From: Actinomycetota bacterium
Lineage (GTDB): Bacteria > Actinomycetota > Thermoleophilia > UBA2241
Assembly: GCA_003132585.1 (NCBI GenBank)
Contig: PKYG01000097.1
Coordinates: 1,790 to 65,789 of the forward strand
DNA length: 64,000 nucleotides
Reading direction: 5' to 3'
Positions 31,513-41,190 of this stretch are shown piece after piece; the stretch's first letter is position 1; every line of letters starts with the position of its first letter. The notes under the pieces are model-generated. The model was given only the letters and a program-made list of their open reading frames with translations. It did not search any database and was not told the origin of the DNA. The position numbers and the translations under genes are program-made.

Positions 31513-33036
31513 ATGACTGGGCGCGTGCTCGTCCATTCTCGAGTTGCAACCGGGCTCTCGACACTCGTGGGTGGCTCGCTCCTTGCCGTCGTTTTGGGCT
31601 GGGCTGCGGTTGGTCACCACCAGAAGACCATCATCTTCCTGCTTGCTCCGCTGGCGCTGGCTCTGATTCTCCGAGCCGGCAGCAAGAACCGTTTTGCCAT
31701 CCTGTTGTTTGTGTCGGCGGCGATTCCCATTCTAAGCCGCAACATGCTTCCCTTGGGCGTGTTCTTCGGCTTGGCTCTGGTTGCTGCACTCGTCGTCGCG
31801 CATTGGACCAGTCGCGTCTCTTCCCGCGTCACCCACGGCATGGCCGTTGGCCTTCCACTCGTGCTCTTCTTGGGCTTGGGCATGGCGGCGATGCTCGTGA
31901 ACGGCGACGGCATGCGTGCCGGTGCGGTGTGCTTCACACCCGCGGTTTGGTACTTGGCTGCGGCAGCGTTCGTAAGGGGGCCACGTGAGGCTCTACGGGT
32001 CCAAGCGGCGTGCGCCATCGGGGGGTTGGTCTACTTGCTCATTGTGTTGGTTTCGGGGGCGCTGGGGTGGGGCGGCGCTTCTCTCTCGGCAGTGGCCGGT
32101 GATCCTGGGCAGACTGGGATGTCCAGATTGGGGGCGCAGGCCTGGACGCTGCACAGCAACTTGCTGGCCATCCAGTTCTATCCCACATGGCTCGCTACAC
32201 TTCTTGCTTTGGCGATGCCGGCAGCGTTTCTGCTGTTCTTTCGCGCGACCGGCCGTTGGGGCGCGAGGTTTTGGTGGGCCCTCGCCGGGCTGTCCTTGGC
32301 GTATGGTCTTCTTCTCACAGGCGCCCGAGCGGGAGCAACTGGCGCACTTGTCGGCACCAGCGTCACTCTGGTCGCTTCGGGGCGGTTCAGAATCCGTCGA
32401 GTACTGGTATGGTCGGCTACAGCAGCAGTTTCGGTCCTTGCCTTTGGCTTTCTCCTCATGCGCCTCCTGAGCAGCGTTGTGCCGTCCGCGAACGTGGCTC
32501 GCATTGTCGCGGTATTGTCCACCGCACACGACCCAACCGGGAATCTGGCAGGCAGGCTCAGGATCTTGCGCGAGACGCTGGCTCTCGCGAGCGGCGCCCC
32601 TTTGGGTCACGGCTTCGCCTACTGGAGTCTTCGTGGCAGAGACGATGCAATCGTCTTCGCGATGCTTCTCAATGGAGTGGGGCCTCTTGCGGTTCTCTGC
32701 ATGACCGCCCTGCTACTGGTTCTTCTGACGGCATTCGTCAGGCGGGCACGAGGTTCGGTTTCGGATGGGCGCGACGCAGTCGCGATAGGCTTGGGAGTGC
32801 TGGTTGCGGGGTTCTTAGCTGGAGTAGGCAGCCACAGCGTCCTCATTGAGCCGGTTCAGAGCTTCATCTTCTGGGGGTTCGCGATGACGGCGTACTGGGC
32901 GGCGCATCCGCTTGAGCCCATAGGATCGGCTCGATCCCTCCAGCTGAGCACCGGGGAGCTACGTCCCCAAGGAGTCGGCGGAGTGCGCACTGCCCCAGCC
33001 GGCAGCTCGGTCTCTGGCACAAGGCACAGGTCGTGA
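31513..33036 (+). CDS. O-antigen-ligase/polymerase-family (Wzy_C domain) polytopic membrane protein, copy 1.
   Basis: ~12 TM helices. LLLTGARAGATGALVG (Wzy_C signature-like) and periplasmic loop with HGFAYWSLRGRDDAIVFAMLLNGVGPLA. ATG 31513. Confidence 0.6.
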   Translation: MTGRVLVHSRVATGLSTLVGGSLLAVVLGWAAVGHHQKTIIFLLAPLALALILRAGSKNRFAILLFVSAAIPILSRNMLPLGVFFGLALVAALVVAHWTSRVSSRVTHGMAVGLPLVLFLGLGMAAMLVNGDGMRAGAVCFTPAVWYLAAAAFVRGPREALRVQAACAIGGLVYLLIVLVSGALGWGGASLSAVAGDPGQTGMSRLGAQAWTLHSNLLAIQFYPTWLATLLALAMPAAFLLFFRATGRWGARFWWALAGLSLAYGLLLTGARAGATGALVGTSVTLVASGRFRIRRVLVWSATAAVSVLAFGFLLMRLLSSVVPSANVARIVAVLSTAHDPTGNLAGRLRILRETLALASGAPLGHGFAYWSLRGRDDAIVFAMLLNGVGPLAVLCMTALLLVLLTAFVRRARGSVSDGRDAVAIGLGVLVAGFLAGVGSHSVLIEPVQSFIFWGFAMTAYWAAHPLEPIGSARSLQLSTGELRPQGVGGVRTAPAGSSVSGTRHRS

Positions 33037-34184
33037 TGTCACAGTTCGAGAGCCAGGCCTTGGAAGTATCCGTTGTTATTCCCACACGTAATCGAGCGCC
33101 GAGGGTTGCCGCTCTACTTGACTCGATCGCCAGGGTCCGCGAGACGCAACTCGCATGGGAAGTCATCGTCGTGGACAACGGATCGACCGACAGGACGGCT
33201 ACGGTTGTGCGTCAGGCTGCGAGTATGGCTCACATGCCGATCAGGTACGTGAGCGAGCCTGAGCCCGGACTCCACGCTGGCCGGCACCGCGGTGCTCGGG
33301 AGGCGCGCGGTGAGGTTGTCGCCTATCTGGACGACGACACGCAAGTGCACGAAGACTGGCTGCGAGGCGCAGAGCCTGTGCTCCGGGGGCTGGCCGACGC
33401 GGTGGCTTGCAGGATCCTTCCACAGTGGGAAGCGCCGGTCACCTCATGGCTCGAGGACCTGGTGAGCACGGGAGTGTACGGACCCCTCACCCTCTTGGAC
33501 CTTGGCGAGGAGCAACGTGAAGTAGAACCGGAGTTCGTCTGGGGTGCGGGCTTCTTCATCCGGAGGTCTCTTGTGTTCGACCTGAATGGTTTCCATCCCG
33601 ACAGCATGCCCGCTGAGCTCCTGCGGTTCCGGGGGGACGGCGAGAGCGGGCTCATGCGCAAGTTCGCGGCTGCGGGGCATCGTGCGTGGTACGACCCCTC
33701 GTCGGTGGTTGAGCATGCCATGTCCACTAAACGGATGACCCACCTGTACTTGCGCGAACGGTTCTATCGCCAAGGTATCAGTGACTCGTTCGCTGAGCTG
33801 CGCGCGGAGCTCCTATCGCGCGTTGACCTCGGACCAGCGGCTGGGCTTGCTGAGAGCCCGCGGCCGGCAGCCAGGACTCAGCCACGCGTTGCGCCTGAAG
33901 GCTTGCTCCATGTGACGCCGCGGCGGATGGCCGGCGGAATCCGGCGTGGTCGGGCCTGGGCTTCGCGCAACTTGACGGCGTCGCGCAGATCGAGGTTGCG
34001 GTTTGACGAAGACATGCGGCGTGCGGCCCTGCGAGGTCGTGATTTCCATCGGCGAGCAGCGGAAAGCGATACGGGTGTCATGGCGTGGGTGAGACTGCCG
34101 CACTACATCGACGTGTCGCTGTCTGATTTCTCCTCCTTCGCAGGGCCACTTGATTCCCATGACGTGACGCGACCCGAAGGATGA
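33033..34184 (+). CDS. GT2 (GT-A fold) glycosyltransferase, copy 1 of a paralogous pair.
   Basis: VSVVIPTRNRAPRVAALLDSI...VIVVDNGSTDRT...YLDDDT (DxD). Paralog of 38764..39804. Confidence 0.75.
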   Translation: MMSQFESQALEVSVVIPTRNRAPRVAALLDSIARVRETQLAWEVIVVDNGSTDRTATVVRQAASMAHMPIRYVSEPEPGLHAGRHRGAREARGEVVAYLDDDTQVHEDWLRGAEPVLRGLADAVACRILPQWEAPVTSWLEDLVSTGVYGPLTLLDLGEEQREVEPEFVWGAGFFIRRSLVFDLNGFHPDSMPAELLRFRGDGESGLMRKFAAAGHRAWYDPSSVVEHAMSTKRMTHLYLRERFYRQGISDSFAELRAELLSRVDLGPAAGLAESPRPAARTQPRVAPEGLLHVTPRRMAGGIRRGRAWASRNLTASRRSRLRFDEDMRRAALRGRDFHRRAAESDTGVMAWVRLPHYIDVSLSDFSSFAGPLDSHDVTRPEG

Positions 34185-34220
34185 ATGCGTGAGCGGCATT
34201 CGGGCTGAGGAAAAGACTCG

Positions 34221-34514
34221 ATGAAGAAGGCAGATGAGGCTGGTCACCGGAGACTGGCCCTGTTCTACCCGTACCGGTACTGGGCGACGTTCGCCGCGCT
34301 CGACGACCTGGGTGCACTCCTGGGGCAGGCGGGGTGGCAGATCGATCTCTTGGCGCCGGCAACGCCCGATCCCGCAAGTCACGTCGAAGGTTCGTTTCGT
34401 GGGATCAAGTCAGGAGCGAGCTTGGCTGCAGCAAGGCCCAGGACAGTGCCCGCTGCTACAGCCCAACGAATCCGCGGAGACATGAGGCGGCCGCAGGATG
34501 CCAAGGTGCCGTAG
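34221..34514 (+). pseudogene. N-terminal fragment of a GT1-like glycosyltransferase paralogous to 39970..41190 (truncated after ~97 codons).
   Basis: LALFYPYRYWATFAALDDLGALLGQAGWQIDLLAP vs VGVIYPYAWPLPNLVDVGALLRDRGYVVDLLAA. Premature stop, no remaining C-terminal domain. Confidence 0.4.
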
Positions 34515-34559
34515 GGGCCTCAGCCAACCAACATTCGACGAGCGAGACCGACAAAGGAA

Positions 34560-35071
34560 TCACCGTTTCCTCCGAATTCGAACGTGAAGCCAGTCGGTGT
34601 CATGATGGTTCTGCCGTTCAAGCAAGAGCAGGTCGGCCTCTGGCAGGCTCCCGAGTACGTTTTCGTATCGAATGGAGCGATTCCATGCAAGAAACTCGTT
34701 GCCCCTAGCGCTGAAGTTCCATTGATGAAGCTCTCGATAGCCTTCCTTTTCCCCCTCGTTTTCGACTTGCCAGATCGCCAACCAGCAAGAAGGTCTGACA
34801 ACGTGCAGGCAGGCGCGAAAGGCCTGCAGAGGGTCGTGTCCGTGATCGAGTGAGTTGTGGGCGACGACGAGGTCAAATGACGACTCAGGGAAGGCCGAGT
34901 CGATGCTCTCTGCATCGCCCGGCATGACGGGCACCAGCTGCTGCAATGGAAGGCGAGCAAGGATACGTTCGTAGTCGCTGGCCAGCGGGTCGACCGCTGT
35001 GATTTCAATAAGCCGTTCCGGCCATTCCTTCCCGATGACGGTGAAAGGTCCTGAGCCAACATCTAGTATTT
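34560..35071 (-). pseudogene. 3' portion of a small class I SAM-methyltransferase gene interrupted by the IS21-family element. 5' portion (start ATG at 37312) lies on the other side of the IS.
   Basis: Frame opens immediately with motif I LDVGSGPFTVIG right at the IS boundary. Downstream FDLVVAHNSLDHGHDP...VVRPSCWL (motifs II/III). No start codon upstream of motif I. Confidence 0.55.
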
Positions 35072-35160
35072 TGTGTCACTGCCGGTGTGAAACTGACCCA
35101 CTATTGTGTCAACGCCGCCCCAATCCTGAACAGTTTTCGCCGCTCCAATTCTGAACACTC

Positions 35161-35931
35161 TCAGCCGTCGACCTCACCCTGTAGCACCTCCTTGCCCTTG
35201 CCTTTGAGCCGGTAGCTGTCGCCGCGCAGGACGAGCACCTCGGCGTGGTGCACGAGACGGTCGACCAATGCCGCCACGGCCACCGGATCGCCGAAGATCT
35301 CCGCCCAGCCCGAGAACGTTTTGTTCGAGCTCACGATGATCGAAGAGCGCTCGTAGCGGCTCGAGACCAGCGCGAAGAACAGCGCCGCCGCCTCGGGGTC
35401 GAAGGGGATGTAGCCGACCTCGTCGACGACGATCAGCGGCAGACGGCCGATGCGCTCGAGCTCCTCGTCGAGACGGCCCTGTCGTTTGGCGGCGGCAAGG
35501 CGCGCCACCCATTGCTGCGCCGAGGCAAAGGCCACCCGGTGGCCGCGGCGCGCGGCCTGCACCCCGAGGGCGATCGAGAGGTGCGTCTTGCCGGTGCCCG
35601 GCGGCCCTAAGAAGATCACGTTCTTGTGCTCGATCAGGAAGTCGAGCTGGGTGAGGTGCAGGACGGCCTCGCGCTTCAGCGAGCGCTGGAAGGCAAAGTC
35701 GAAGTCGTCGAGCGTCTTCACCTGGGGGAAGCGTGCCGCCTTGACGCGCGCCGCACCGCCGTGGCTCTCACGCGCGGCGACCTCCTCACCGAGCACCGCC
35801 GCCAGGTAGGCCTCGTAGCTCCAGCCCTCCTCGCGGGCGCGCTCGGCCAGCGTCTCGGCCAACTCGCGCACCCGCGGCGCCTTCAGGGCCCGGGCGCAGA
35901 AGGCGACCTCGCTGGCCGCCTTGGCGCTCAC
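35161..35931 (-). CDS. istB: IS21-family transposition helper ATPase IstB.
   Basis: Walker A GPPGTGKTHL, Walker B LIVVDEVGY. GTG start in GTGA overlap with istA stop. Confidence 0.85.
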   Translation of the reverse strand: MSAKAASEVAFCARALKAPRVRELAETLAERAREEGWSYEAYLAAVLGEEVAARESHGGAARVKAARFPQVKTLDDFDFAFQRSLKREAVLHLTQLDFLIEHKNVIFLGPPGTGKTHLSIALGVQAARRGHRVAFASAQQWVARLAAAKRQGRLDEELERIGRLPLIVVDEVGYIPFDPEAAALFFALVSSRYERSSIIVSSNKTFSGWAEIFGDPVAVAALVDRLVHHAEVLVLRGDSYRLKGKGKEVLQGEVDG

Positions 35932-37152
35932 GAGCTCACCCCGAGCAGAGCGTCGTAGCGGGCGAGATCGACCGCCTCAAGCTCGGGCTCGCCGCCCTTG
36001 AGGCGTCGCTGGGCCTCCTGCGCAGCGGCCAGAGCTCTCATGTGCTCGTGGTCGCGCACCACGTCGGCCGGCACGTAGCTGTGCGCATGGCGGGCAATCT
36101 GGCGCGCTTCGCAGAACAGGGAGAGCTCAGAGAGGCCGAGGTGCACGCACACCCGCCGCCCGGCGTAGCCCGGCGGCAGCGAGTAGTCGACGCCGGCCAC
36201 GCGCGCGAAGCCGTCGCGGCTCACCCGCACCTCGAGGCGCCGGTCGGTGGCCGGCGCCGGGTCGGGCAGAGGGGCGAGCTCGGCGCGCTCGACGGCGAGC
36301 GCCTCCGCCACCCGCGCGCCGAGACGCCGGAGGTAGCGCGTCCAGGCGACCTCGCGCGTCCAGGCATCGCTCTGCGCCTGCAAGGTCGGCGAGGCCGGCA
36401 AAGCGGCGCAGCGGCAAGAACGAGCTCTCCAAGTAGCCGTTGGTGCGCTCCACCGATCCCTTGCTCTGCGGGCGCGCGGGGGGCAGCACGATGCAGCCCA
36501 TGGCGAGCGCGCCGAGCAGGCCGGCGAGCTCGTCGACGGGGCGCGGACGTGCATGGCCACGACGCACGACGAGGCTCGTGTCGTTGTCGACGACCAGCTT
36601 CGCCGGCACGCCGCCGAGGCGCGCGAGGCAGCCGAAGAGGGCGGGCACCGCGTCGGCCGTGGTCTGCGAGTGCGTGTAGACCACGGCGTGGGCGGCCGAG
36701 AAGGGCAGCGTGGCGACCAGGCCGTGGGCGCGACGGCGCGCGCCCTTGCCCACGGGCACGTCGATGCCGGTATCCCACCAGTCGGCCTGCAAAAGCTCGC
36801 CCGGCGCGTAGCTCGTGCGCCCGAAGTCACGGGCGGCCTTGAACTGCGGGCGCACCGCCGCCAGGTAGTCCTTCAAGATGGTGATGCCGCCAGCGTAGCC
36901 GGCGCGTTGCAGATGCTCGCGGATCACCGTCGCCGGCACGCTTGCATCTTCGCTGAGCATCTCGAGCACGGCACCCTTGAACGGGTCGAGCAGAGATGCG
37001 GCCGGTTCGCGCTCGTAGGCTGGGGGCTCTGCCAGGGCCAGCAGCCGGTAGACCGTCGTGCGGCTCATCTCCAGCCGCCTGGCGATCGCTCGCTTGGAGA
37101 GGCCTTCGCGATCGAGCCTGCGGGCCTCCGACCAATCATGCACCTGATACAC
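35928..37152 (-). pseudogene. istA: IS21-family transposase IstA, disrupted by a +1 frameshift near 36380.
   Basis: N-terminal frame (HTH plus DDE core ...SKGSVERTNGYLESSFLPLRRFAGLADL) switches to another frame for the C-terminal part (QAQSDAWTREVAWTRYLRR...). Junction sequence GCCGACCTTGCAGGCGCAG. Confidence 0.75.
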
Positions 37153-37275
37153 CCCTTCCTCCCTTGTGCGCCTTGAAGTTCACACAAGGGTTCGTCACCA
37201 GTCCTTCACTGCGGCGTGGACTGTCCAGTTTTCGACCGGCGAAGAGTGTTCAGTTTTGCAGCGGCGTCGACACAA

Positions 37276-37312
37276 GGGCCGTGCTCTCGTCTGATGGCCA
37301 GAGAAGAGTCAT
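37276..37312 (-). pseudogene. 5' end (MTLLWPSDESTA) of the IS-interrupted methyltransferase gene.
   Basis: ATG at 37312 reads in frame into the 34560..35071 segment if the 2204 bp between the IS inverted-repeat termini are removed. Confidence 0.45.
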
Positions 37313-37363
37313 CGCACTTGCAAGGGTGTTACGACAAGAAGCCGTGGGCGGGGTGAAACTGCC

Positions 37364-38767
37364 ATGACCGCTGGAGCAATCGGCCGCCTGCGGATGCCAG
37401 CGTATCTGGCTATGACGATTCTGATGGCCCTCATTGCCCTGCGTGTGGGTTGGGCGGTCTCCGGTCAGCACTACAAGGTCCTCGGTGGCCTGCTGCTCGT
37501 CCCCGCGTTGGCCGCTCTGGGGTTGCTGGGGCGGAGCGTGCGCTTCAAGCTTCTGCTTCTCGCGGCTGCGCTGACCCCTCTTCAGACGCCCTCTCTCCTT
37601 CCCTACGGCTTGTCGATGAGTGAGCTGCTCCTGCTCGGCCTAATCGCTGTGCAATGGACTCCCGCGGTGTCCCGCCGCCTCAGCAGAGGCCTGGGGGTGC
37701 TGGTCCCCCTGATGTTCTTTCTTACGCTGGGTCTGCTCGCCGGCTACCTGCACGGAGAGCTCGGTGCATCGCAAGTCGTGTGCGTCACCCCGTTACTCTG
37801 GTTTCTGGCCGCAGCTGTCTTCGTCAGGAGTCCGCGAGACGCGTTGAGAGTCCAGGTAGCGTGCATTTTGAGCGCGGCCCTCTATGTTGCCATCGTGCGT
37901 CTTGCCTCGGCCCTCGGTTATGGCGGGACGGTGTTCGCCGTCGCGGCTGGGTCCGCATCTCGACTGGGGGCAGCGGGTTGGGCACTTGACGTCGGGCCGG
38001 TGTCCGTGCGGTTCTGGTCCACATGGCTTGCCGCGCTCGTGGGTGTAGCAATGCCAGGCGCGGCGCTCTTTTTCGTGCGCGCCAAAGGCCATGCTTTGGC
38101 GAGGTACTCGTGGCTCGCGATCATGGCGCTCTTCGTATACGCAATCGTGCTGAGCGCAGGTCGAGGCGGCGCCCTGGGTGGAGCCATCGGCATCGCAGTC
38201 GCTCTTCTCACTTGTGGGCGGTTGTCACCGAGGCGCGTGCTCTTGGCATCAGCCGGGCTTGGGGTCTTTGGAATGGTTTTTCAGTCCATCCTTACGAAGG
38301 CGGCACTCAGCGTCTTGCCAGGCTCGAACCTGTCGCGTATCGGGACCCTCCTGAGATTCTCGACTGACCAGACGGGCAACTTCCAGTACCGCGTCAGAGT
38401 GTTGCAGGAGACTGTTGCCGGCGTGGCGGAGGCTCCTTTTGGCCGCGGTTTCAACTATTGGTACAGCCGTGGCGTGGATGATCCGATTGCGTATGCCATG
38501 CTCTTGAACGGCGTCGGAGTGCTGGGTGTTCTCGCCTTCGGTGCGCTCATCGCCGTGCTGGCAGCGACCTACATGCGACGAGTGGCACATGCGACTGGTG
38601 CTGCGCGGGATGCTATAGCGGTCGCCCTTGGCACGTTGGTGGCTGCCATGGTGGCCGGCGGCTCGAGCCACACTGTCTGGATCGCGCCAGTGCATACGTT
38701 CCTTTTCTGGGGTATCTTGATGAGCACCTACTGGGGCGTCGTCACCCAAGCGAGGCGCTCGGATTGA
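37364..38767 (+). CDS. O-antigen-ligase/polymerase-family (Wzy_C domain) polytopic membrane protein, copy 2.
   Basis: Collinear similarity to 31513 gene (VRSPRDALRVQVACILSAALYVAIV vs VRGPREALRVQAACAIGGLVYLLIV; VLSAGRGGALGGAIG vs LLTGARAGATGALVG). Confidence 0.6.
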   Translation: MTAGAIGRLRMPAYLAMTILMALIALRVGWAVSGQHYKVLGGLLLVPALAALGLLGRSVRFKLLLLAAALTPLQTPSLLPYGLSMSELLLLGLIAVQWTPAVSRRLSRGLGVLVPLMFFLTLGLLAGYLHGELGASQVVCVTPLLWFLAAAVFVRSPRDALRVQVACILSAALYVAIVRLASALGYGGTVFAVAAGSASRLGAAGWALDVGPVSVRFWSTWLAALVGVAMPGAALFFVRAKGHALARYSWLAIMALFVYAIVLSAGRGGALGGAIGIAVALLTCGRLSPRRVLLASAGLGVFGMVFQSILTKAALSVLPGSNLSRIGTLLRFSTDQTGNFQYRVRVLQETVAGVAEAPFGRGFNYWYSRGVDDPIAYAMLLNGVGVLGVLAFGALIAVLAATYMRRVAHATGAARDAIAVALGTLVAAMVAGGSSHTVWIAPVHTFLFWGILMSTYWGVVTQARRSD

Positions 38768-39804
38768 TTACCGTGGCCGTTCCAACCTATCGTCACCCAG
38801 ATTACGCGATGGATGCACTACGGAGCTTGGTCGACCAGCGGTTCGCCCCCGCCTTCGAGATTCTCGTGTTGGACAATGCATGCGACGAGCGGCTCGCACA
38901 GCGCGTGAGACGGATGGCCGAGCGAAGCAGCGCACGGGTCGAGTACGTCGGCGTGCCGGCGATTGGCCTGCACAGAGGTCGGCACGAGGCTGCCCGCAGA
39001 GCCCTTGGGGACGTTCTGGCGTACGTGGACGACGATGTCATTGCCGAGGAAGGCTGGCTCGCTGGCCTTGCTGAGGCTTTTGAGGATCCGAGCGTGCATC
39101 TGGTGGGCGGCCGAAATCTGCCGCTGTTCGAAGCGGAAGTGCCGTCATGGCTGGGAGCCTTCTGGTCCCCCGGCGCACAGCAGTGCGGGCTGCTGACACT
39201 GATCGACCTGGGCAGCGAATCGAAGGATGTGGATCCTCTGCTTGTATGGGGTGCGAACTTCGCGATCCGCAAGGCCACGCTGCATCAAGTCGGTGGTTTT
39301 CACCCTGATGGTTTCCCGTGGGAACTGTGCAGGTTCCGTGGCGATGGGGAGACGGCAGTCTCAAGAGAGATCGCGCGCCTACGGCTGCGAGCCGTGTATT
39401 GCCCACAGGCTACGATCCATCACCGGGTGTCGCCGGACCGGCTGACCGAAGCGTACTTCAAGCGACGTGAGTTCCTGCAGGGTGTGTCTGACTCGTATTT
39501 CGCAGCGCGCCTGAGCGGAGGCAAGCCGGCGGCAGTGCCTCGGACGTCGCGGATCCGCGCGTTGGCAAGCGGAGGCAAGGCTGCCATGCGAAGCTGCTTC
39601 CCGGTCAATGGAGTGCCGTCTCAGTGGCGCGCAGTCCGTGAGCGAGTCTGGAGGACACACTCGGAGGGCTATCGGTACCACCAGGAGGTGCTCCGGAGGG
39701 ACGAGAGCCTGCGGGCTTGGGTGACCTTGCCGGACTACTGGACGTCCGACGTGTCTCGATTCGACGGCAAGGCGCCCAGCCCGGGGGGGACACATGCGAG
39801 TTGA
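38764..39804 (+). CDS. GT2 (GT-A fold) glycosyltransferase, copy 2.
   Basis: VAVPTYRHPDYAMDALRSL...ILVLDNACDE...YVDDDV. TTG start overlapping upstream TGA. Confidence 0.75.
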   Translation: MITVAVPTYRHPDYAMDALRSLVDQRFAPAFEILVLDNACDERLAQRVRRMAERSSARVEYVGVPAIGLHRGRHEAARRALGDVLAYVDDDVIAEEGWLAGLAEAFEDPSVHLVGGRNLPLFEAEVPSWLGAFWSPGAQQCGLLTLIDLGSESKDVDPLLVWGANFAIRKATLHQVGGFHPDGFPWELCRFRGDGETAVSREIARLRLRAVYCPQATIHHRVSPDRLTEAYFKRREFLQGVSDSYFAARLSGGKPAAVPRTSRIRALASGGKAAMRSCFPVNGVPSQWRAVRERVWRTHSEGYRYHQEVLRRDESLRAWVTLPDYWTSDVSRFDGKAPSPGGTHAS

Positions 39805-39969
39805 GCTGGATGGCGTCGCGCTGGGCTTGGCCTGCCTGATGCGATGTAGCCACCCCATGAGAGGCCTCGCTGCAGCACCTGTGTCGGGGGTCTACTCCGG
39901 CGGCAGGTATCCTTGGGTCTACCCAGTCGCTGCGACGGCCGGCAACCGACGATCACCGCGAGGTCTCTG

Positions 39970-41190
39970 ATGGATCGAGTCGGCGTGATATATCCGTACG
40001 CGTGGCCCCTCCCGAATCTCGTCGACGTTGGGGCTTTGCTTCGCGACCGCGGGTACGTCGTCGATCTTCTTGCTGCGCGAGAGGCGGTCGGCAGTTCCTC
40101 CGAATGGAGCGGTCAGCTTTCGTGCGATCTTGTCGGCCATCCGGGCGTCATGACTGGACGTTTCGTGCATGCGCCAGGCTGGATGCGGGGTAGAGCGCAG
40201 AGGCCGTATCGGCGTGCCGCATTCCTCGTCGGTCGCGCGTCGCTTGTCCACAGGATGCGACATCGCCACGAGTCTGACCGCTACGTGGCGCTGGTCGGGT
40301 GCGATGCAGAGGGCGTCCTTGAGGCGGCGCGACTGGCCAAAACGCTGCCCGTCCCGTATCTCTATTGGTCGCTAGAGATAGCTACATTCCACGCGGACAT
40401 GACACCGGCGGAGCGTGCGTTGAAGGATCTAGAAACGGTAGTCAGTCGAAACGCGGCGGCCGTCATCGTTCAAGATCAATGGCGGGCCCGGTTGCTCGCG
40501 ACGGAGAACGGACTCGAGGGAGTCAGGACTGTCTACTTGCCCAACTCACGACGGCAAGTGACACGCCTGCCTCGAGAGACCTCGACGCTACGAGCGCGCC
40601 TAGGCATTCCGCAGGATGTGCATCTGGTTATCTACACGGGCTTTCTGGCTGACTGGGCAGAGTGTCGGGGCATTGCCCAGAGCGCCGCTCATTGGCCCAA
40701 CGGAACAGCACTCCTGTTGAATTCCCGAGCCGCCGCTGACAGGTCGCTTGCCGACACGTTCAGGAGCCTGGCACCACCGGGGCGCGTGTATGTCAATCTC
40801 GACCCGGTACCCGACTCGGAGTACGGGGCTCTGCTGCGCTGTGCGTCCGCCGGCGTCGCCCTGTACTCCCCAAAGGAGTCGCCGGCAGGCTTCAGAGAGA
40901 ACCTGGAGGTCGTTGGCTTTTCCTCGGGCAAGATCGCCGCCTACCTGCAGTTCGGATTGCCCGTGATCGTCGGCATGAACACAGGTCCGCGGGAATTGGT
41001 TGAGGAGTTCGACTGTGGAGTCTGCGTGGAGGATCCGCACGGGATAGGGGCCGCCCTCCGCCGAATACTCGCGGACCGTCCGGCATTCTCCGAGCGAGCG
41101 CGTACCTGCTTCGCCCAGAGGCTCGCACTCGAGCCTGGCGTGAGCGCTCTTGCGGATTGCCTGGACTCCTTGCGTGATCAGAGATGCTGA
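39970..41190 (+). CDS. GT1/GT-B-like glycosyltransferase.
   Basis: 406 aa, ATG 39970. Two-Rossmann-like organisation with C-terminal ...GLPVIVGMNTGPRELVEEFDCGVCVED (GT-B nucleotide-binding-like). Confidence 0.55.
   Translation: MDRVGVIYPYAWPLPNLVDVGALLRDRGYVVDLLAAREAVGSSSEWSGQLSCDLVGHPGVMTGRFVHAPGWMRGRAQRPYRRAAFLVGRASLVHRMRHRHESDRYVALVGCDAEGVLEAARLAKTLPVPYLYWSLEIATFHADMTPAERALKDLETVVSRNAAAVIVQDQWRARLLATENGLEGVRTVYLPNSRRQVTRLPRETSTLRARLGIPQDVHLVIYTGFLADWAECRGIAQSAAHWPNGTALLLNSRAAADRSLADTFRSLAPPGRVYVNLDPVPDSEYGALLRCASAGVALYSPKESPAGFRENLEVVGFSSGKIAAYLQFGLPVIVGMNTGPRELVEEFDCGVCVEDPHGIGAALRRILADRPAFSERARTCFAQRLALEPGVSALADCLDSLRDQRC

Follow-up and report, generated by a model that had tools for sequence, protein, structure and literature searches.

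What took place at a locus where an insertion sequence (IS) ends exactly at the 5' edge of a methyltransferase reading frame? The question arises in a 64,000-nucleotide stretch of contig PKYG01000097.1 from an uncultured member of the Actinomycetota (Thermoleophilia, lineage UBA2241), which we refer to as the window. An earlier note, made from the letters of this DNA, had proposed that a degenerate IS21-family element sits inside a small S-adenosylmethionine (SAM)-dependent methyltransferase gene and that removing 2204 bp rejoins its open reading frame (ORF). Our analysis leads to another answer: the locus is probably the scar of two IS21-family elements and not a simple insertion, formed by the nesting of one IS in another and an IS-associated deletion that followed. 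In plus-strand order it consists of a methyltransferase stump, the tip of one element (IS-A), the abutting second element (IS-B), a 91-bp spacer and a gene for a Wzy-like protein. The boundaries and the identity of these pieces, the missing N-terminus of the methyltransferase, the missing target duplication and a frameshift in the transposase gene istA are all observed directly.

An IS21-family element with a frameshifted istA

The element at 35107-37272, here named IS-B, is an IS21-family insertion sequence and has every structural feature that defines this family. Its parts are as follows.

35107-37272, minus strand: IS-B, a complete IS21-family IS of 2166 bp with the tips TGTC...GACA and no flanking target duplication
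35107-35167, plus strand: terminal inverted repeat on the istB side of IS-B; two direct repeats of 25 nt at 35113-35137 and 35138-35162 (repeats I1 and D8)
35161-35931, minus strand: istB, intact, for an AAA+ helper ATPase of 256 amino acids (aa) (PF01695, NF038214)
35928-37152, minus strand: istA pseudogene with one extra T; removal of one base yields a 407-aa IstA
37212-37272, plus strand: terminal inverted repeat on the istA side of IS-B; two repeats of 25 nt at 37212-37236 and 37237-37261 (repeats I1 and D9)

The assignment to IS21 and the IstA/IstB pair, both already put forward in the earlier note, were borne out by profile searches (NF033546, NF038214, PF01695). IstB matched PF01695 with an E-value of 3e-73 and NF038214 with 277 bits (cut-off 200), and its gene has the same length as in the relatives of IS-B. 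After removal of one base, IstA matched NF033546 with 201 bits (cut-off 160) over 11-297, and the repaired 407-aa protein contains an HTH_7 domain and a Mu-transpos_C_2 domain. The stop codon of istA and the start codon of istB overlap at 35928-35931, both genes being encoded on the minus strand.

The coding sequence of istA is distributed over two frames, an N-terminal one that begins at 37152 and a C-terminal one that ends at 35928. The frame changes at GCCGACCT[T]GCAGGCGCAG, in agreement with the switch that had been noticed near 36380, and alignment with intact relatives attributed it to one extra T at 36382/36383. Dropping one of the two A at this position (T on the coding strand, within GCCGACCT[T]GCAGG) resulted in the 407-aa protein, which aligns along its entire length (100%) with intact 407-aa metagenome proteins (P0121, P0122) at 87% identity. 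In a DNA alignment with four related elements, the extra T is the sole indel in 2166 bp in comparison to the closest copies of 2165 bp; with the copy in contig L058, the IS-B copy of the window shares 88.7% identity, again with this single indel. The frameshifted istA was present in all independent assemblies checked (JGI, ENA and Logan; different samples). These assemblies from different samples agree base for base where aligned, so the frameshift is a genuine mutation rather than an error in the reads. A programmed frameshift was considered and rejected, as every relative has one continuous ORF of 407 aa. The IS-B copy is immobile now unless IstA comes in trans, and it lacks the uninterrupted istA of an autonomous copy. 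The description of the IS as degenerate overstated the damage, which amounts to one frameshift only, with the ends and istB intact.

The closest relatives of IS-B (80-89% DNA identity) were found only in metagenome contigs. Its IstA is only 35-39% identical to the nearest annotated IS21 transposases, which are plasmid-borne and actinobacterial, and a scan of genome contigs with IstA gave one partial match of 75%, in a Gammaproteobacteria metagenome-assembled genome. The exact IstB sequence turned up at this locus alone, and the 64-kb window contains neither a second copy of IS-B nor further IS fragments. The GC content of IS-B is 70%. Two observations on other contigs concern the same element. 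In another organism (L058, L060-L063; about 1-1160), close relatives of IS-B lie ~200 bp from an IS3-family element with HTH_Tnp_1 and rve genes, forming an IS cluster. Furthermore, one Logan contig from sample SRR7151546 (L008) consists of IS-B alone (window positions 35138-37272), reaching the true right tip and starting 31 nt inward of the left one; therefore, variants of the left terminal repeat coexist in this sample.

The best inverted repeat in the element (I1) pairs 35104-35167 with 37212-37275 over 64 nt at 75% identity, and the repeats of the CTGAACA type described in the earlier note, 25 nt long, are indeed present at both ends (35113-35162 and 37212-37261). The arrangement of two direct repeats at each end agrees with the L1/L2-R1/R2 layout of IS21 ends (PMC10122671). 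The terminal repeats as originally drawn were, however, 3 nt too long. In related elements (L011-L014, L058-L067), the flanks diverge exactly outside TGTCGACGCC... and ...GGCGTTGACA (TGTC/GACA), four contigs stop at the IS-B tips (L059, L065, L014, L008), with the right tip GGCGTCGACA ending at 37272, which is also the end of L008, and two insertion sites of IS-B relatives carry the 5-bp target duplications TCTTG and AGAGC. As the divergence of the flanks and the duplications in ten or more related copies, together with the contig ends, fix the tips at TGTC (35107) and GACA (37272), IS-B spans 35107-37272 (2166 bp). The repeats looked 3 nt longer because each of the three IS tips at the locus has TTG directly in front of it when read outward (35071-35073, 35104-35106 and 37273-37275); next to the tips of IS-B, this TTG/CAA is flanking DNA and lies outside the element. 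One insertion site of an IS-B relative likewise ends in CTTG (L058, L060-L063).

Many IS21 members, including IS5376, generate direct repeats of 5 bp without a strong sequence preference (PMC11208146). Around IS-B no target duplication was found, with TATTG (35102-35106) on the left and CAAGG (37273-37277) on the right, and on this point we agree with the earlier note. Since the relatives make 5-bp duplications and none is present here, IS-B does not occupy a simple insertion site. The absence of a duplication bears on the history of this copy and not on its membership in the IS21 family.

The methyltransferase stump and the in-frame rejoining

The methyltransferase frame adjoins IS-B on the left. 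Three features on the two sides of the element are needed here.

34560-35073, minus strand: 3' two-thirds of a class I SAM-methyltransferase gene, a pseudogene, with homology from 35072 to 34563 and the stop codon at 34560-34562
37273-37363, no strand: spacer of 91 bp between the IS-B tip and the Wzy_C-like gene, holding a chance ATG at 37312 (minus strand)
37364-38767, plus strand: gene for a 467-aa polytopic protein, Wzy_C-like (O-antigen ligase/polymerase-like), a context gene outside the IS

On the minus strand, a frame opens at the left IS boundary with methyltransferase motif I (ILDVGSGPFTVIG; ILDVGSGP), as had been seen before, and the motif lies at the very 5' edge of the stump. The stump matched Pfam family Methyltransf_11 (PF08241) with an E-value of 4e-11 and 43.7 bits (cut-off 21.2), and its identity to full-length homologues (P0002, P0003) is 54-57% between motif I and the C-terminus; LDVGSGP is invariant in the family alignment (A1). 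Nearly all of the 120 listed homologues are ~240-270 aa long, with 83-95 residues before motif I. Their N-terminal ~87 residues are conserved and include a nearly invariant W and an LQ motif (alignment A1).

Nothing of this N-terminal part was found in the window. In tblastn searches with four homologues (P0002, P0003, P0006, P0007) the match started exactly at 35072, corresponding to homologue residue 83-88, and a hidden Markov model (HMM) of the family matched the window with positions 88-256 only. An HMM of the N-terminal part gave no match in the six-frame translation of the 64 kb (best E-value 0.5, at an unrelated place), and a relocated or inverted N-terminus was not found in the window with the four homologues and this HMM either. 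Moreover, an in-frame stop codon lies two codons upstream of K-I-L-D, and the first start codon in frame, at 34946, is located downstream of motif I. Because the homology starts only at residue 83-88, the N-terminal part is absent, a stop lies upstream and no start precedes motif I, the methyltransferase is, as judged by sequence comparison, a 5'-truncated pseudogene, the stump of a ~255-aa gene and not a small gene split by an IS. That the stump might be a conserved stand-alone ORF was considered as well and rejected: its 90% cluster has one member, and motif I is missing from the called ORF. The 121/128-aa gene call annotated as 'SAM-dependent methyltransferase' is accordingly the stump of a ~255-aa gene, neither small and intact nor restorable. 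Two assemblies of the locus (L001 and L002) are identical in sequence, and the differences between them stem from gene calling only.

The stump has a GC content of 56%, compared to 63-65% for the rest of the cluster in which it lies. It is on the strand opposite to the cluster and is the only minus-strand coding remnant among plus-strand genes. One of the homologues (P0006) is encoded within a polysaccharide gene cluster, another (P0029) is not.

With the ends of IS-B and the length of the homologues in hand, the reading proposed at the outset can be weighed. It holds that a single IS21 element of ~2204 bp was inserted in a ~156-aa methyltransferase gene and that its precise removal rejoins MTLLWPSDESTA to ILDVGSGP. 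The sequence features on which it was built are present: the repeated TTGTGTC... strings at 35071 and 35104, their reverse complement ending at 37275, and the ATG at 37312 encoding MTLLWPSDESTA. Deleting 35072-37275 does fuse MTLLWPSDESTA to QILDVGSGP in frame, and a forced alignment places 'TLLWP' opposite a weak 'LL..P' consensus just before motif I. The deleted segment is, however, not bounded by IS termini. The repeat at 35071 is not an end of the same IS; it is the tip of IS-A, to which the 33 nt at 35074-35106 belong. An in-frame join has a prior of 1 in 3 and would additionally need the removal of 5 nt beyond the real tips, and there is no duplication, neither of 5 bp nor of any kind that would justify removing extra bases. 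Excision between real ends gave a different result: removal of IS-B together with the IS-A tip (2199 bp) leads to MTLLWPSDESTALAKY*, removal of IS-B alone (2166 bp) to a stop before motif I, and in both cases the frame stops after 16 codons. As only the choice of 2204 bp gives an in-frame join, the 156-aa fusion is a one-in-three coincidence.

The right-hand side of the proposed join fares no better. The ATG at 37312 belongs to a minus-strand ORF that overlaps the start of the real plus-strand gene at 37364-38767, and the spacer (37273-37363) contains no methyltransferase sequence (tblastn, HMM) and no IS-A sequence. A restorable gene for ~156 aa is also at odds with homologues of ~240-270 aa, whose ~87 N-terminal residues with the conserved W and LQ are absent from the window. 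The earlier note had made its reading depend on where the true termini lie; they lie elsewhere, and the flanks between them are not rejoined in frame. It had also expected IS-free relatives with an intact ORF of ~470 bp. Look-ups with the exact 467-aa neighbour, the exact methyltransferase stump and IstB recovered no IS-free version of the locus, only the same arrangement with the IS. All in all, we regard a single 2204-bp insertion as very improbable. What stands of the idea that an IS insertion inactivated the methyltransferase is that the gene is inactive and adjoins the IS; a simple insertion is not what the junctions record, and the 5' part is missing. More generally, little weight should be given to a reading frame that continues across an excised IS, unless it is consistent with the termini, the target duplication and the homologue length alike.

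The tip of a second element and the probable history of the locus

The DNA between the stump and IS-B belongs to another element.

35074-35106, plus strand: IS-A tip, a 33-nt istA-proximal terminal repeat of a different IS21-family element, cut off by the IS-B tip

The sequence of these 33 nt is TGTCACTGCCGGTGTGAAACTGACCCACTATTG. Its first 23 nt were found in 37 metagenome contigs, in which the DNA preceding TGTC is unrelated between contigs and the sequence that follows is conserved (...CTA[C/G/T]TG[C/A]CGGTYTGAAATG...); in L041, all 33 nt are identical. IS-A has a length of ~1933 bp in full copies, and the proteins encoded there are 33-36% (IstA) and 42-44% (IstB) identical to those of IS-B; the TGTCAC tip is the istA-proximal end. 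In the window, IS-A stops after nt 33, where the IS-B tip begins (exact junction: CCCACTATTGTGTCAACGCC), and its continuation (CCGGTCTGAAATG...) is absent beyond the right end of IS-B, i.e. to the right of 37272. The flanks of IS-A copies in metagenome contigs are mixed by assembly (L042 vs L057), which blurs the reading of their target duplications. Solo truncated ends of IS-A like the one in the window are not rare, since in several metagenome contigs (L022/L031, L025, L033/L046, L040) the IS-A tip breaks off after its first 24-44 nt and unrelated DNA takes over.

As a side observation, a 9-mer of the IS-A tip, GTGAAACTG (35087-35095), recurs on the same strand at 37353-37361, 3 nt before the start codon (ATG) of the Wzy-like gene. 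The 64 kb contain no third copy, against an expected 0.26 in total, and two copies were reached in 3 of 100 shuffles. The recurrence may be due to chance or may reflect the ribosome-binding region of the Wzy-like gene.

Could metagenome assembly have created the junction artefactually, by a chimeric connection between repeated IS ends? Flanks are clearly mixed in metagenome contigs of related ISs (L012 vs L013, L042 vs L057), and the breaks in the Logan contigs fall at the IS-A tip (35074 and 35103, with an overlap of 30 nt), as expected if the tip also occurs elsewhere in those samples. The same junctions recur, however, in different samples (JGI, ENA and Logan assemblies) with 100% identity, and the contigs that contain them are up to ~660 kb long. 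Across the junction, the Logan pieces share exactly k-1 = 30 nt, and the IS appears to be single-copy for its exact sequence. An artefact is therefore hardly to be expected.

In the history that we favour, IS-A would first have inserted into or beside the methyltransferase gene, just upstream of motif I. An end of IS-B would then have become attached to the terminal repeat of IS-A at nt 33/34, and a deletion with one endpoint exactly at an IS-B tip would have taken away the remaining ~1.9 kb of IS-A, the initial ~87 methyltransferase codons and further DNA. These last two steps were possibly one event, an intramolecular transposition of IS-B that produced an adjacent deletion and no target duplication. 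The one-base insertion would have disabled istA afterwards. Both the order of events and the mechanism of the deletion are inferred from the junctions alone.

The same anatomy would also result if the deletion had occurred by homologous recombination of two IS-B copies, one nested in IS-A and one 91 bp upstream of the Wzy-like gene, leaving one hybrid copy with mismatched flanks. A lone IS without duplication and with unrelated half-site flanks is the classical signature of two-copy recombination, too. In addition, relatives of IS-B are multi-copy in metagenomes, where assemblies join their flanks in various combinations. On the other hand, the window holds no second copy of IS-B, and the exact IstB sequence is confined to this locus; the data as such do not separate recombination from intramolecular transposition. 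We consider this route unlikely, while giving it more weight than any other alternative discussed here.

A further explanation treats the IS-A tip and IS-B (35074-37272, 2199 bp) as one unit that moved with the IS-A tip as its left end and landed beside an already truncated methyltransferase. The ends would allow for this to some degree: the IS-A tip is 77% complementary to the right end of IS-B over 26 nt, the two have the TGTC tip and the motif GAAACTGA in common, and the istB-side tips of IS-A and IS-B are nearly identical (GGCGTTGACA). Such a unit would nevertheless have two ends of the same type, as the IS-A tip is istA-proximal like the IS-B end at 37272, together with a complete end in its interior. 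The 2199-bp unit also has no 5-bp duplication (TTTTG vs CAAGG), and the junction CCCACTATTG|TGTCAACGCC was seen at no other locus compared. Movement as a hybrid unit is thus improbable.

Three points weigh against nesting followed by deletion as we propose it. No IS-free relative was found, so the ancestral arrangement and the extent of the deletion are deduced and not observed. One sequence does not settle the order of events, nor the choice between intramolecular transposition and IS-B/IS-B recombination. Finally, the TTG before the three tips might reflect a target preference instead of a coincidence.

The TTG also allows for a more speculative idea, namely that IS21-family elements preferentially integrate into the terminal repeats of related elements, yielding hybrid ends that can be used as alternative ends and drive adjacent deletions. 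Such a preference would fit because TTG precedes the three tips and because, in contig L012 (4546-4552), the DNA right after the GACA tip starts with GTCGACA, a copy of the final 7 nt of that element's other end, which may represent another abutted partial IS end. We think this preference quite improbable. If it were true, a heterologous end might recruit IstA/IstB, and the 33-nt IS-A tip fused to IS-B would be an example of a hybrid end.

The surrounding cluster and comparison with known systems

The gene cluster around the locus is of the polysaccharide (O-antigen-like) type and also encodes ABC transporters, many glycosyltransferases and further methyltransferases. The GC content of the window is 67-72% over 1-14 kb, 58-64% over ~20-50 kb, where the polysaccharide cluster is located, and 65-68% thereafter. 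A scan of 34200-37500 for promoters and terminators found nothing. The 467-aa protein to the right of the spacer matched Pfam Wzy_C with an E-value of 9e-5, below the family cut-off, and is 42% identical to a paralogue encoded at 31513-33036. A search of 5.8 billion clusters returned no homologue besides the protein itself, and all contigs that encode it (12/12, from JGI, ENA and Logan assemblies) carry the IS alongside.

To the left of the stump, two further features are of interest.

33033-34184: GT2 gene of module 1
34221-34514, plus strand: 97-aa ORF, residues 11-45 of which resemble the N-terminus of a 425-aa ORF at 39913-41190

The region contains two paralogous modules of three genes each, at 31513-34514 and 37364-41190, which are composed of a Wzy-like gene, a GT2 gene and a third gene. 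Identity between the modules is 42% for the Wzy_C-like genes and 36% for the GT2 genes. Of the third gene of module 1, only ~45 N-terminal codons appear to be left, inside the 97-aa ORF. This ORF has no Pfam match, and tblastn within the window aligned it to residues 22-54 of the product of 39913-41190 (43% over 35 residues, E-value 0.002). By this similarity, the ORF probably represents what remains of a second truncated gene of the cluster, to the left of the methyltransferase fragment, and the alignment suggests a further truncation near 34356, where no IS end is visible. Because the third gene of module 1 appears to survive as ~45 codons, the region has probably lost more than the 5' end of the methyltransferase.

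The missing duplication shows that the cluster lost DNA here. What was lost includes at minimum the 5' portion of the methyltransferase gene, and probably also the larger part of a gene next to it, and this loss could change the glycan made by this uncultured organism. The findings are of use chiefly for annotation: the locus is to be entered as an IS21-family IS of 2166 bp with an istA pseudogene, beside the solo 33-nt end of a second IS.

Compared with IS21 and IS5376, the prototypes of the family, IS-B shows the same order of istA and then istB on one strand with an overlap of 4 nt, an IstA of ~400 aa with an N-terminal helix-turn-helix, a DDE core and a C-terminal barrel of the Mu-transposase type, and an IstB of 256 aa. 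The TG...CA ends with two direct repeats each and the 5-bp target duplications of the relatives agree with these elements as well (PMC10122671, PMC11208146). In contrast to them, the copy in the window has a frameshifted istA and no target duplication. The stump resembles the Methyltransf_11-type enzymes of ~240-270 aa (P0002, P0003, P0006) in motif I, the acidic residue of post-I and the conserved C-terminal HQWNF and WL.V.I.K. Unlike this family, whose N-terminus carries W..E..FW and ..DP...LQ, the copy in the window is devoid of the ~87 N-terminal residues, and no start codon precedes its motif I. Insertion of one IS into another and adjacent deletions caused by an IS are part of general IS biology. 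The locus shares with them an IS end that abuts a truncated IS end, flanks that are not duplicates and a gene whose sequence is missing up to the exact tip, and here the mechanism is deduced from the junctions alone. IS-B itself has many metagenome relatives at 80-89% DNA identity. Taken together, this is an ordinary finding, a nested and inactivated IS beside a gene stump.

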